Positions 11,297-63,955 of a stretch of DNA of 64,000 nt are shown one piece after another (within the stretch, counting starts at the first letter, position 1; every line of letters starts with the position of its first letter). A program made the position numbers and the translations under genes. Origin of the DNA: a phage; sequence record OZ346212.1, one strand, 5' to 3'. The notes beneath the pieces were generated by a model. That model saw nothing but the letters and a program-made list of their open reading frames with translations. It was not told the origin of the DNA and searched no databases.

Positions 11297-11523
11297 TTTC
11301 CACAACAACTAAGAGAGGAGAGCACTGTGGAGACTAAAATCTTAATTCTTGCTGTGGTAGATACAACCGAAGGAGCTATATTCGAATCTGCAGGGGGGTA
11401 TTTCTACCTACCATACGGAAAAAGAACTTCCGAGCCAAGTAAAGATTCAATCCTCAAGGTGTTCCCGTGTGCTTTCTGGCTGGAGATTTTGGTATAAGAT
11501 TGCAGAGGATTTGGGAGAGAATT

Positions 11524-13705: not shown

Positions 13706-14280
13706 ATGATAATCATTCTCGTTTGCAGAATAACGGGCAGGCCCGGTGATTGTCTCCCGGCCCCTGTTGCCCCGGCTTGTTATTATAGTATCACACAGGA
13801 CAAAGAAAGCAAGGACTTTTTGCATAAATTTTTAAATGATAATGATAACCGTTCTCATTTTATGCAGCGCCCATCCCCGGTGGTTGTCTCCCCCGTCACC
13901 GGTGCCTGCCGTCCTTTCGATATGTATATTGTGCCACCTGGCGGGGCCGCTGTCAACACTTTTCAAAAAATTTTTCTAACCTGGTGCGCTAACCGTTGCA
14001 ACCTGGCGGGGCCAGCCTGGCAGGACCTAACTGACCAGGTAGGGGAGAATGAAGGCTTGTAAACCTGGTGGGCCTATGCTACAGGATAGGTAACAATTGA
14101 AGAGGAGGTACAAAAATGATATGATCCCCCTGGAAAATGTAGCTATTAATGACTCTGAGGCTATCGCCCTGGTTGAAAAGGCTATGGCGGGAGCGTTGGA
14201 ACATAAAGAAGAGTACGAAAATGGTGGTTAACCTGGCGGGGGCGGCAGGTGGATTCTATCATAAAAATAATTTAAAATAG
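13706..14280. repeat. GC-rich repeat family (AACCTGGCGGGGCC) and duplicated ~60-bp segments
   Basis: Motif at ~13936, 14000, 14229 (also 20056); segments 13700-13790 and 13830-13920 share TGATAAT...CCGGTG(A/G)TTGTCTCCC. Confidence 0.55.
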
Positions 14281-15036: not shown

Positions 15037-15088
15037 TAAGCACATAAACGGGAAAACTTCCCAGAACACACAAAAGGAGAAAAACACC

Positions 15089-16858: not shown

Positions 16859-16875
16859 GCCTCAATAAGTATACT
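16848..16875 (+). promoter_or_regulatory. sigma70-like promoter (TTGACA-N16-TATACT)
   Basis: Read from sequence. Confidence 0.55.
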
Positions 16876-18682: not shown

Positions 18683-18802
18683 ATGACAACCAAGGATAAG
18701 CCCCGCACCGATAAGGTGCGCCGTGTTATGGTATGGCTTGAGATCATCGCCCTTGAAATATTGTTAGGCGTAGGGATGTATTTTATCTCTGTAAGTAACT
18801 GA
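18683..18802 (+). CDS. small membrane peptide (39 aa)
   Basis: Not in ORF track; strong RBS AAGGGGGAGA; MTTKDKPRTDKVRRVMVWLEIIALEILLGVGMYFISVSN. Confidence 0.45.
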   Translation: MTTKDKPRTDKVRRVMVWLEIIALEILLGVGMYFISVSN

Positions 18803-18806
18803 TAAC

Positions 18807-18838
18807 GGCCCCCGATCCCTGGGGGGCCTAACTTTTTT
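18807..18838 (+). terminator. intrinsic terminator
   Basis: GGCCCCC...GGGGGGCC followed by TTTTTT. Confidence 0.7.
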
Positions 18839-18861
18839 CAAAAAATTTTTCTTCCGGGGTG

Positions 18862-18890
18862 TTGCAATCCGGTCCTGAATATGGATAATA
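18862..18890 (+). promoter_or_regulatory. sigma70-like promoter (TTGCAA-N17-ATAATA)
   Basis: Read from sequence. Confidence 0.5.
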
Positions 18891-18945
18891 ACAATCAACG
18901 GGGAAACATCCCCACCAACACAAAAACCAGAAAGGAGAAACAAAA

Positions 18946-19146
18946 ATGAGCAACAATATCCGCGTTATTAACTTCAAAAAAGAAGAAAAAATTGCCGTGC
19001 TGATTGACGGTCAAGAAATCTTCAAGGGCGACTATGAAGATCATCAAACGGCGATTAGTATCACTCGCGTGATTGGTTACCATAATTTTTACCCCCAAGG
19101 CGCTGAGGCGGCGGTTAAACGAATCAAAGAGATTGTAGGCCTGTAA
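18946..19146 (+). CDS. hypothetical early protein
   Basis: RBS AAAGGAGA. Confidence 0.5.
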   Translation: MSNNIRVINFKKEEKIAVLIDGQEIFKGDYEDHQTAISITRVIGYHNFYPQGAEAAVKRIKEIVGL

Positions 19147-19149
19147 AAT

Positions 19150-19194
19150 TTATTTTTAGATGGCCTTGACTCTAGGGCCATCAATAAAGTAAAT
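19150..19194 (+). repeat. conserved 45-bp promoter-associated element, copy 3
   Basis: Two substitutions relative to copies 1 and 2. Confidence 0.6.
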
Positions 19195-19233
19195 TTAAAC
19201 CCTGTTAAAATACCACGCAGTTAACAAGGAGTA

Positions 19234-19539
19234 ATGATCATGTTTATCCAGGCTAATAATCTTTATTTCTTTGATGGTCAGATCGTAGATGGTGTGGAAG
19301 TGGAGATCACTGGGTGCCCTGGTGGTCAGGCTATGACTTTTCGGAATAATGCCTTTGATGATTCTCATATCGTTATGAGAATGGAAGTTACAAAGCTGGA
19401 CGACAAGAAAACGCTCATTGACTATTCCGTGAAAGATCATCCAGACTACCACATGATCTATGGTGATTTGTGCATTGTTGACCGTGACAAGGTGGGCGGC
19501 ATTGTGATCGCTATTGTGAACGATGTTTTCTCTGTATAG
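19234..19539 (+). CDS. hypothetical early protein
   Basis: RBS CAAGGAG. Confidence 0.5.
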   Translation: MIMFIQANNLYFFDGQIVDGVEVEITGCPGGQAMTFRNNAFDDSHIVMRMEVTKLDDKKTLIDYSVKDHPDYHMIYGDLCIVDRDKVGGIVIAIVNDVFSV

Positions 19540-19600
19540 TTCCGGCAAATGATGCAAAATAAGGCCCCTAGCAGGGCCTACAGCGATATAATCACATAAA

Positions 19601-19630
19601 GGCCATGCAACCGCATGGCCTTTATTATTT
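19601..19630 (+). terminator. intrinsic terminator
   Basis: GGCCATGC-aacc-GCATGGCC followed by TTTATTATTT. Confidence 0.7.
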
Positions 19631-19678
19631 TGGCGTTACAGCGGCCCCAAGGCGCTTAAAAATTTTTTAAAGAAGTAC

Positions 19679-19706
19679 TTGCATCAAGCCCTACAATATG
19701 GATAAT
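19679..19706 (+). promoter_or_regulatory. sigma70-like promoter (TTGCAT-N16-GATAAT)
   Basis: Read from sequence. Confidence 0.5.
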
Positions 19707-19717
19707 AGGACGTGTCA

Positions 19718-19731
19718 GGGGGGGGGGGGGG
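19718..19731 (+). repeat. G14 homopolymeric tract in 5' leader
   Basis: 14 consecutive G between the -10 box and the RBS of gene 19771. Confidence 0.9.
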
Positions 19732-19770
19732 AGGCCCCAATCATTAACCGGATAGATAGGAGTTAAAACC

Positions 19771-20055
19771 ATGGCTATTGTTACCGCTGGCGATGTAGTA
19801 GAAATGGAAGCAAAATACTTAAAAGCGGGTATGCATATCCTACGCAACGATCTTGAACTGGTCCTGACAATGGTTGACTATAACCCAGGGCAAGATTATC
19901 CAAGTGTTGACTACTTTTTTGAGTATGTTGATGAAGAGTTGAAAGAGGATGAGGCCTATTGCGGTGAGTTCTGCAACTTCTTTTGTCCTGATGAGGTTGT
20001 AAAGGTTATCTATCAACCTGGCGTAGCTTTCCCGCTGCACGCTATCAATAAATAA
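19771..20055 (+). CDS. hypothetical early protein
   Basis: RBS TAGGAG. Confidence 0.5.
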   Translation: MAIVTAGDVVEMEAKYLKAGMHILRNDLELVLTMVDYNPGQDYPSVDYFFEYVDEELKEDEAYCGEFCNFFCPDEVVKVIYQPGVAFPLHAINK

Positions 20056-20117
20056 ACCTGGCGGGGCCGAAAAGGCCCCCGCCTGAAATTATGAAAAATA
20101 AAAAGAGGCAAACTATC

Positions 20118-20351
20118 ATGATGGAACAAATTAAACGCGCTGAGGCTATTAATGGCAATGTAATCTATTTTGTCAGCAAAAACGAAAAAGGCGTACCCTA
20201 TGCGGCGGTAATAGTACAGCCTGACGGCGATTATTGGTGCACTGTGTACGGCGCTTATTCTTTTGGGCGTCCAGTGCATGATAAAATTTTGAAAGTAGCG
20301 AACCCTACCGGGAAAAATATTACAGCAGAAAAATTTTTTGAAAAAAGTTGA
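20118..20351 (+). CDS. hypothetical early protein
   Basis: Start moved to ATG 20118 after RBS AAGAGG. Confidence 0.5.
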   Translation: MMEQIKRAEAINGNVIYFVSKNEKGVPYAAVIVQPDGDYWCTVYGAYSFGRPVHDKILKVANPTGKNITAEKFFEKS

Positions 20352-20375
20352 CATGACCATATAAAACTGTAGTAT
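20348..20375 (+). promoter_or_regulatory. sigma70-like promoter (TTGACA-N16-TAGTAT)
   Basis: Read from sequence. Confidence 0.5.
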
Positions 20376-20427
20376 ATAAATCAAAGGGGGCAACAAGCCC
20401 CACCAACCACAAAGAGGATAAAAAATC

Positions 20428-20607
20428 ATGGCTATTATTGCAAAGACCGAGATCGTAGGCTTAGATTCTATTCTCCTCGCATATGAGGAAGCTATAGAAA
20501 TGTATGTGGTTTCCTATGGTGAGTATATCCGTGAATATGAATCTATTGATCTAGCTTTTGAATGTTATATTCGCCAGGTTAATAAAGCGTACGATGATTA
20601 TCGTTAA
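20428..20607 (+). CDS. hypothetical early protein (59 aa)
   Basis: Not in ORF track; RBS AAGAGGA. Confidence 0.45.
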   Translation: MAIIAKTEIVGLDSILLAYEEAIEMYVVSYGEYIREYESIDLAFECYIRQVNKAYDDYR

Positions 20608-20698
20608 AATAGTTTGACAACAAACAACCATCTAACAAAGCATAATACATAAGGTGGTAGAATGATCCGCCACCCGGAACAAAGAAGAGGTAAACACC

Positions 20699-20944
20699 AT
20701 GAAAAGCAATAAAGGTTATAACGGTTACAAAAACAAAACTCATTGGAATGTAAGCCTTTGGATTAATAACGATGAGTCATTGTACCGGTTGGCCCAAGGA
20801 TTTATTAACGCTAATGCTAATCGTAATGATGCGGCGCGGGATATGATGCTTTTTCTGGAGCTAACCGGACAAGATAAGACCCCGGACGGCTTCAAGTACA
20901 GCACTACGGCGATCCGTGCCGCGATGGTTGGAATGAAACACTAA
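20699..20944 (+). CDS. hypothetical early protein
   Basis: RBS AGAAGAGG. Confidence 0.5.
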   Translation: MKSNKGYNGYKNKTHWNVSLWINNDESLYRLAQGFINANANRNDAARDMMLFLELTGQDKTPDGFKYSTTAIRAAMVGMKH

Positions 20945-21271
20945 AAGCACATAGCCGCCAGATCTCAGAATTTACGTACGCTCACCAGTCTATAGCCTGC
21001 TAAGTATTTATTCCAACCATAGAATAACGGAATAGTCAATACCTGCATAAAATAATTATTCGTGTAAACTGCATAACATAAATCGGCTAGGATGTCAACA
21101 TTTTTCGTAAACAGCTCGAAATTATAACGGTGAGTTATAATAAACAGAGAAATCTTTAGTCGTCTAATGTTTACTGTACATTACTATACTGACTGGAATC
21201 ATTAGATGACTAAGAGAAAGATAAGAAATCATTAACAATGCAATTGTTTTATTCGTAACAATAAGGCAACT

Positions 21272-21563
21272 ATGCAAACGGATGGCATGGCGCGACGGAG
21301 TCGCGACATAATATAAAAGCAGTAACCATCACCCCCGTGATAGTTTGTCTGCAAACTATTAATCAGATCATAGTTGCCTTGTATTTAGTTAATCATGACA
21401 TAACAAGCAAGGCAACTATAGATCTGCTAATAGTTGCCCTGCTTTTATATTATGTCATAGATTATTAGCCTGTTAATTGTTAGTCAGTCAAATCAACAAC
21501 GTTATCATTTCAGTCTTTATTGTTGTTGATCGTTATTGTTATCATGCAAACGAATGGCATGGC
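21272..21563. repeat. dyad-symmetry cluster bounded by 20-bp direct repeats
   Basis: ATGCAAACG(G/A)ATGGCATGGC at 21272 and 21544; between them AGGCAACTAT in both orientations, ATGACATAA/TTATGTCAT and CGCGAC/GTCGCG palindromes. Confidence 0.6.
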
Positions 21564-21936
21564 TTATCATTTTTGAGTAAACAATCTATACGTGAACAGT
21601 GAGGCAAGTTAGCAGCCGATAGATTAGATATTAACCTGCAGACTTCTGACCGTCTAGACGTCTAAACGCCCACACAACAAGGATTATACATACAATACTG
21701 AATGTAAACAGGGCCGCAAAAATGCTACCATACCACAGATTGTAAATTTTTCATGCAGCACTTGACAAAGAGGAGAACTTAATTTTATCAGGATAGGCAA
21801 GAATGTCAAGGCATGACTGCTCACTAAACAAGCAAACAGTCATGTGTGGGAGGTAAGTGATTGTGGTGGTAGGAAATTTAGTTGAAAGATGTGTTATAGG
21901 TGCTTCCAGCACTTTAGCCGGGCAGCTAATTGTGTG

Positions 21937-22152
21937 TCAGTCCAGCGGTTCATCCTCTACTTCACTGAAATCAATGTTCATGGTCTCTTCCCAACCATCG
22001 ATCTCAGCACAAGAGTGGAGTTCTTTAGGGTTTACTCCTAAAGCCTCAGCAACAGAGTCTATATTTAACACCTCTGGCAGGTATGATTCATCAAATTCAA
22101 GGTAAATCAGGCCACGAGTGTTGTCAGCTCCACCAAATATTTCTATCTTCAT
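21937..22152 (-). CDS. hypothetical acidic protein
   Basis: ORF track. Confidence 0.45.
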   Translation of the reverse strand: MKIEIFGGADNTRGLIYLEFDESYLPEVLNIDSVAEALGVNPKELHSCAEIDGWEETMNIDFSEVEDEPLD

Positions 22153-63584: not shown

Positions 63585-63659
63585 GCCCTGTTAGCTTAGT
63601 GGATAAAGCAGCGGCCTTCTAAGCCGTTGACACTGGTTCGAGTCCAGTACGGGGTGCCA
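63585..63659 (+). tRNA. tRNA-Arg (anticodon TCT)
   Basis: Cloverleaf folded by hand: acceptor GCCCTGT/ACGGGGT, D-stem GCTT/AAGC, anticodon loop CTTCTAA, T-loop TTCGAGT, encoded CCA. Confidence 0.8.
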
Positions 63660-63663
63660 AATT

Positions 63664-63750
63664 GGGGAGTTATCCCGTAGAGGTAGCGGTGTAGACTGTA
63701 AATCTATTGTCATTGCGACTCGGGTGGTTCGACTCCACCACTCCCCACCA
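63664..63750 (+). tRNA. tRNA-Tyr (anticodon GTA)
   Basis: Acceptor GGGGAGT/ACTCCCC, anticodon loop CTGTAAA, long variable arm, T-loop TTCGACT, encoded CCA. Confidence 0.8.
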
Positions 63751-63864
63751 AATTTATATTTTTAGATGCATAAATAATACAGATAATGGCATTGATATTT
63801 ATCGTCGTTTATACTAGTCACTAACTGCTCGAAAATCAGTGTCATTATCAGTATTATTTATAAA

Positions 63865-63955
63865 GGAGGGTAGGGAGCAATGGTGCTCAATCGGTCTTGA
63901 AAACCGTCCCGTTGAGGATGACTCGATGATGGTTCGATTCCATTACTCTCCGCCA
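63865..63955 (+). tRNA. tRNA-Ser (anticodon TGA)
   Basis: Acceptor GGAGGGT/ACTCTCC, anticodon loop CTTGAAA, long variable arm, T-loop TTCGATT, encoded CCA. Confidence 0.7.

Follow-up and report, generated by a model that had tools for sequence, protein, structure and literature searches.

A 14-nucleotide G-run in the leader hairpin of a putative early gene of a Vequintavirus phage, probably a slippage expansion at a length-variable site

The phage and the locus

The window analysed here, the whole stretch of 64,000 nucleotides, comes from a Vequintavirus (an rV5-like E. coli myophage) and shows 92-96% identity to more than 100 phage records. Its first 25 kb are at ~95% identity to FFH2, APECc02 and the BASEL phages, and the 1.2 kb surrounding the tract described below match 133 phage records at 80-95% identity. 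Since no identical record is found among these matches, the window represents a distinct isolate or assembly. Among the matches are also 21 GenBank records named 'Campylobacter phage' (UNVERIFIED, with C. jejuni given as host, e.g., MG065646, MG065647 and MG065662) that are Vequintavirus, 92-95% identical to this region. Complete-length Vequintavirus contigs (~136-138 kb) are found under GCA_019973235, GCA_025270055, GCA_000614405, GCA_022979955 and GCA_002509925 (L029, L031, L033, L037 and L038 in our set), which would suggest phage carriage or culture contamination if they stem from bacterial genome assemblies.

The intergenic region 19540-19770 consists, in this order, of a small hairpin, a terminator, an A5T6A3 block, a promoter, the G14 tract with the adjoining AGG and CCCC, and a Shine-Dalgarno sequence (SD) leading to an ATG. 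The features of the locus are:

19596-19632, + strand: rho-independent terminator of the upstream 99-aa gene (terminator scan)
19658-19671, + strand: A5T6A3 block upstream of the -35 hexamer, resembling an UP element and putatively acting as one (sequence)
19679-19706, + strand: sigma-70-type promoter, TTGCAT-16 nt-GATAAT (pattern scan)
19679-19684, + strand: -35 hexamer TTGCAT, separated from the -10 hexamer by the 16-nt spacer
19701-19706, + strand: -10 hexamer GATAAT (pattern scan)
19718-19731, + strand: G14, the lengthened 5' arm of the stem-loop in the leader; 11 nt separate it from the -10 hexamer and 26 nt from the SD
19732-19738, + strand: loop AGG (19732-19734) and 3' arm CCCC (19735-19738) of the stem-loop (RNA folding)
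19758-19762, + strand: Shine-Dalgarno sequence AGGAG, 8 nt before the ATG (sequence)
19771-20055, + strand: gene of 94 aa with its ATG at 19771, homologue of rV5 ORF 176 / gp171 (ORF list)
20060-20083, + strand: GC-rich hairpin GGCGGGGCC-GAAAA-GGCCCCCGCC past the stop codon, with no clear T-run (sequence)

An earlier note on this DNA had placed the homopolymer between a -10 box at 19701 and the ribosome binding site of the gene starting at 19771, and both the tract and these landmarks are confirmed in the sequence. The terminator consists of a stem, ATAAAGGCCATGC/GCATGGCCTTTAT, and a T-rich tail; its homologue is t177 of rV5 (Table S4 in PMC3606486), and the record of phage Alma likewise lists a terminator for this element. 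In phage Gotham the corresponding promoter carries an annotation, as a PhagePromoter prediction, and both promoter and leader are nearly invariant among the 52 relatives that we compared. Transcription would start at ~19712-19714, ~7 nt past the -10 hexamer. A role of the leader hairpin as a terminator or attenuator was rejected, as no T-run follows it; the hairpin past the stop codon may form the 3' end of the transcript or serve as a partial terminator.

The 94-aa protein belongs to phrog_12610 (E=6.6e-64), a PHROGs family without known function, and a Pfam search with it returned no family above the cut-off. Its 21 database homologues are all Vequintavirus-like and none has a functional name, and its AlphaFold2 model is of low confidence (pLDDT 58). 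From the gene order and the sigma-70-type promoters, it appears to be an early gene. Further downstream, at the switch from + to - strand genes, ~1 kb of the window (20945-21940) holds only short ORFs (at most 53 aa), and the bin 20001-22000 has a low G+C content of 0.39. For the genome map of rV5, a 'non-coding' box is mentioned (PMC3606486) that may or may not correspond to this stretch. Three clustered tRNA genes (Arg-TCT, Tyr-GTA and Ser-TGA) are found at 63585-63955, at the right end of the window.

A single long homopolymer in a window depleted of them

The 14 consecutive G at 19718-19731 form the sole homopolymer of at least 7 nt, of any base, across the 64,000 bases; the second-longest G-runs in the window are three runs of six, at 11393, 16172 and 18821. 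A first-order Markov model of the window predicts 3.7e-5 runs of 14 or more G, and the tract is thus far beyond chance. The same model predicts, for homopolymers of at least 7 nt over positions 1-64000, ~12 A-runs, ~10 T-runs, ~1 C-run and ~1 G-run, and no A-run or T-run of this length is observed in the window. Apart from G14, homopolymer avoidance is therefore strong over the whole window. With 14 nt, the tract is long enough for the frequent slippage (from ~7 nt upwards) that is expected of hypermutable simple sequence repeats or contingency loci.

A conserved stem-loop in the leader and in sister leaders

The G-run is one arm of a stem-loop that is retained at the same position in all 52 relatives, in the form of a G-run, a loop of 3-6 nt and a C-rich run, and RNA folding keeps the GGGG/CCCC stem paired in the window as in all of the relatives' variants. 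Three sequence types are found: Gn-(A/C)GG-C4-7; Gn-CGGUGAGG-CCUCC, with a G.U pair; and GGAGG-UGAUG-CCUCC (in the relatives L015, C7 and L057). Across these types one stem pair shifts from G-C to G.U to A-U (GGGGG/CCCCC, GGGGG/CCUCC, GGAGG/CCUCC), a covariation of a single base pair that is supportive of a hairpin conserved through compensatory change.

The earlier note had also stated that paralogous leaders carry a hairpin of the GGGG..CCCC type at the position of the tract. Such leaders do exist: a promoter and hairpin scan found four more + strand promoters of the window followed, 10-12 nt after the -10 hexamer, by a G-run, a loop and a C-run:

-10 hexamer ending at 15037, + strand: leader hairpin GGGAA..TTCCC
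-10 hexamer ending at 16875, + strand: leader hairpin GGCGGGAA..TTCCCGCC
-10 hexamer ending at 18889, + strand: leader hairpin GGGGA..TCCCC
-10 hexamer ending at 20375, + strand: leader hairpin GGGGGC..GCCCC

Counted from the predicted transcription starts, the hairpin would begin at about +4 to +6 in the G14 leader and in the four others, a placement that would fit 5'-terminal stabilising stem-loops. In the literature searched, we found no study on the function of this recurrent leader design for the genus.

The length of the G-run varies among relatives

The homologous leader was taken from 52 relatives, comprising GenBank phages, IMG/VR and metagenome contigs (of which a pattern scan yielded one and three, respectively), and contigs from NCBI, ENA and Logan that were chosen as encoding exactly the 94-aa, 99-aa or 81-aa protein of the window. 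The G-run is G4 in 3 relatives, G5 in 18, G6 in 16, G7 in 7 and G8 in 3, so that 47/52 lie between G4 and G8; single relatives have G11 (Logan assembly ERR11560377, L044) and G17 (phage V18, NC_041937), and in two relatives the arm is interrupted by an A. The 3' arm varies as well, from C4 to C7.

Lengths differ even where the flanks do not. The haplotype of the window, GTGTCA-Gn-AGGCCCC, has just 4 variable sites over 134 flanking nt, and in it n is 5 once, 6 six times and 7 twice, beside the 14 of the window. The haplotype Gn-CGGTGAGGCCTCC has n = 5, 5, 6, 6, 6, 7, 8, 8, 8 and 11, and Gn-CGGCCCCC ranges from n = 4 to n = 7. Each flank-identical haplotype has four to five length states, and the run differs between relatives as a hypermutable tract does. 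Over 19552-20959, the three closest relatives are 98.5-98.7% identical to the window and share the flanks of the run, which is G6, G7 and G6 in them; no closer assembly came up in the exact-protein look-ups, and hence no independent copy of this genome that would confirm G14. Against its nearest haplotype the window shows a clean insertion of ~8 G. Because several lengths coexist inside flank-identical haplotypes, the leader G-run is a hotspot of recurrent and independent length change. The comparison with relatives that the earlier note had proposed as a check therefore finds a G-run polymorphic in length, with several lengths per haplotype, and its suggestion that the tract is prone to slipped-strand length variation is borne out by the G4-G8, G11 and G17 alleles at the same site.

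Other intergenic homopolymers also differ in length within the genus. The A-tract upstream of the 18862 promoter is A6 in the window (18840-18845) and A10-A12 in rV5, the IMG/VR contig and APECc02 (L003:138-147, L004:3640-3651 and L028:19610-19621); that at 13965-13970 is A6 in the window and A10-A15 in phages RudolfGeigy and WalterGehring (L026:15271-15285 and L027:13387-13396). Both sit just upstream of other early promoters. Within the A5T6 block (19658-19668 in the window) upstream of the promoter of the G14 leader, phage nomine has A10 (L019:199-208) and the metagenome contig CYGL01001998 has T9 (L013:942-950; the stored strand reads A9). Given these expansions, the genus as a whole seems prone to slippage in non-coding homopolymers. 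Runs in coding sequence are kept to at most 6. The Vequintavirus literature that we searched yielded no mention of homopolymers.

A real expansion or an artefact

Could the 14 G be an error of base-calling, polishing or consensus at a G-rich hairpin, with a true tract that is short (~G6-G8) or of some other length? Long G-runs are hard for every sequencing platform, and the exact count in any of them is uncertain. Within its haplotype class, moreover, no sequence but the window exceeds 7 G, its nearest relatives having G5-G7. A further point in favour of an error comes from V18, in which G17-CTCC spans 21 nt; the G8-CGGTGAGGC-CTCC of phages nimi and ECP32 is exactly as long, as though four bases (C, T, A and C) were misread as G, and this match in length hints that the G-rich hairpin may provoke sequencing problems. 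The G17 of V18 (L008:458-474 in NC_041937) could itself be genuine or stem from faulty base-calling, and a literature search for the sequencing method of V18 returned nothing useful.

Against an error, both flanks of G14 are intact and identical to those of relatives, and the extra G fall exactly in the run that is polymorphic in independent assemblies. In the alleles of intermediate length, G8 and G11, the CGGTGAGGCCTCC downstream is intact, so that they are pure length changes. Homopolymer noise is not seen elsewhere in the window, where no other run reaches 7, and no gene in its 1-26 kb shows a frameshift signature when compared with three relatives. A consensus built from error-prone long reads tends to make long homopolymers too short or to miss their length by 1-2, which also speaks against an error of this kind. 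One specific source of error, dark-cycle poly-G, was rejected: the poly-G tails of two-colour chemistry run to the ends of reads and cannot rejoin a correct flank, whereas here the correct sequence lies on both sides and the AGGCCCC flank is rejoined. We thus regard an artefact as a lesser though appreciable chance, and consider it probable, from the sequence comparisons above, that G14 is a real slippage expansion, best read as neutral.

Predicted effects on the leader RNA

The leader was folded by partition function with n = 0 to 20 G. The CCCC arm is predicted to be paired (probability 0.94 or higher) once the G-run reaches 5. The predicted unpaired probability of the SD (0.37-0.44) and of the AUG (0.39-0.56) does not depend on n and stays level between n = 4 and n = 20, so that by nearest-neighbour rules the expansion leaves ribosome access unchanged. 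An effect of tract length on the accessibility of the SD or AUG was accordingly rejected at this level of folding.

G-quadruplex formation is predicted to depend on length. With the ViennaRNA gquad option, the energies of which are approximate, no quadruplex is predicted for n up to 7, a two-tetrad quadruplex becomes possible from n = 8, and a three-tetrad one from n = 15, as in V18. For the G14 of the window, this rough energy model gives a minimum free energy of -37.7 kcal/mol with a two-tetrad quadruplex versus -24.6 kcal/mol without it. Long alleles are therefore predicted to cross into the quadruplex-capable range and to put ~10 nt ahead of the hairpin, and either the quadruplex capacity or the added 5' nucleotides could alter mRNA stability or promoter escape.

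Comparison with known systems

Hypermutability has been reported for homopolymers of at least 6 nt in phages that include T2 and T4, and in Fletchervirus genomes the genes for receptor-binding proteins contain poly-G tracts of G7-G11 (Gomez, Barrick and Waters; bioRxiv 10.1101/2025.10.21.683753). The G14 run resembles these phage contingency tracts in being a homopolymer well above the slippage threshold whose length differs between close relatives, with polymerase slippage as the presumed mechanism in both cases. Yet the phage tracts lie mostly inside ORFs and act by frameshifting, whereas G14 is non-coding and sits in a 5' leader as one arm of a conserved hairpin.

In bacteria, poly-G or poly-C tracts in promoter regions underlie phase variation of porA and opc in Neisseria and of fim in Bordetella; these tracts lie in the -35/-10 spacer or in an activator site and change the geometry of the promoter. 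G14 is likewise a non-coding homopolymer near a promoter that varies in length, putatively by slippage, but it is located past the -10 hexamer, and the spacer does not vary. For the stem-loop itself the closest parallel is the 5' UTR hairpin of ompA, which reportedly, from work of Emory, Bouvet and Belasco in 1992, protects the message against 5'-end-dependent decay by RNase E. The leaders described here have a comparable short, GC-rich hairpin predicted at ~4-6 nt from the 5' end, recurring in five leaders of the phage and conserved, in the case of the G14 leader, among relatives with one covarying pair. Unlike in ompA, the hairpin would with G14 be preceded by ~15 unpaired nt, which in the ompA paradigm would weaken the protection.

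The nearest precedent for a leader G-repeat is tlpB of Helicobacter pylori, where a G-repeat of variable length tunes expression together with the small RNA RepG (PMC8295292). As in tlpB, G14 is a homopolymeric G-repeat whose length varies between strains and which lies in the 5' UTR upstream of the SD. It differs in that it pairs in cis with the adjacent C-run, no C/U-rich partner having been found in the 64-kb window, and in that it belongs to the genome of a lytic coliphage. The kind of element is thus already known, hypermutable homopolymers from phages and expression-tuning G-repeats from bacteria; judged by its sequence, G14 has both the length and the polymorphism between relatives that mark a hypermutable tract.

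Neutral hotspot or regulatory switch

We propose the following explanation. The sigma-70-type promoter would drive a short unit of transcription with an accessory gene of 94 aa, whose mRNA is predicted to open with a small stem-loop made of the G-run as 5' arm and the C-run as 3' arm; this stem-loop, recurring in the leaders of small genes, probably protects the message. As both arms are homopolymeric, the replisome of the phage presumably slips on them, which would make the G-run a mutational hotspot. Its length would drift between G4 and G8 in most relatives, and in the window it would have grown by ~8 to G14; since longer runs slip more, a long right tail (G11, G14, G17) would result. The expansion is predicted to retain the GGGG/CCCC hairpin and to leave the SD and AUG as accessible as before, while adding ~10 extra G on the 5' side and giving the leader RNA, as well as the non-template strand of the DNA, the capacity for a two-tetrad G-quadruplex. 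Most likely, a dispensable gene would be expressed at a modestly changed level or just as before. The economical view is that of a neutral hotspot.

Alternatively, selection may act on the length of the G-run as a rheostat that reversibly adjusts the early gene, with short runs giving a 5' hairpin and long ones a G-quadruplex or a single-stranded 5' extension, and hence heterogeneous expression within the phage population. Such an adaptive RNA contingency locus would fit with a site that is recurrently polymorphic on three haplotype backgrounds, and with a quadruplex predicted by ViennaRNA from n = 8 (three tetrads from n = 15) and for no n up to 7. It also has precedents in the contingency loci and poly-G tracts documented in phages (bioRxiv 10.1101/2025.10.21.683753) and in the variable leader G-repeat that tunes tlpB in H. 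pylori (PMC8295292). Nevertheless, the predicted accessibility of the SD and AUG does not change between n = 4 and n = 20, the quadruplex energy model is rough and the downstream gene is without known function. In addition, the 47/52 relatives at G4-G8 are what neutral slippage combined with a hairpin constraint would give, and other intergenic homopolymers vary similarly. We therefore find selection for a rheostat unlikely. The more elaborate form of this idea, in which subpopulations with the hairpin (G5-G7) and with a G-quadruplex or extended tail (G8 or longer) would tune the dose of the phrog_12610 protein as bet-hedging, perhaps towards host defences able to detect this protein, seems to us improbable.

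A third idea, that a C/U-rich RNA (a small RNA or an anti-SD-like sequence) docks onto the G-run, with the length of the run setting the regulatory outcome in the style of RepG and tlpB, draws on that analogy only (PMC8295292) and on the 3' arm CCUCC of many relatives, which resembles an anti-SD; it is very hard to credit, as a scan of both strands of the 64-kb window for C/U-rich partners returned nothing but the complement of the tract itself and SD sequences in reverse complement, an Rfam scan of 18700-20500 at a permissive threshold gave only chance-level hits (E 0.4-0.7), and the adjacent C-run is the obvious pairing partner of the G-run.

Implications for Vequintavirus genomes

If the tract is real, the neutral slippage that we favour would provide a clear and easily assayed hotspot in a well-sampled genus of therapeutic and biocontrol phages. 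It would also mark a position at which Vequintavirus assemblies are not to be trusted to the base, and where SNP or indel differences between isolates are expected noise. The alleles from G4 to G17 would form a natural series in an otherwise invariant promoter-leader, which could serve to test the part that 5' hairpins, single-stranded extensions and G-quadruplexes play in the expression of early phage mRNAs. If the length of the run did tune expression, it would extend the recently proposed contingency loci of phages from frameshifts in coding sequences to control at the level of RNA.
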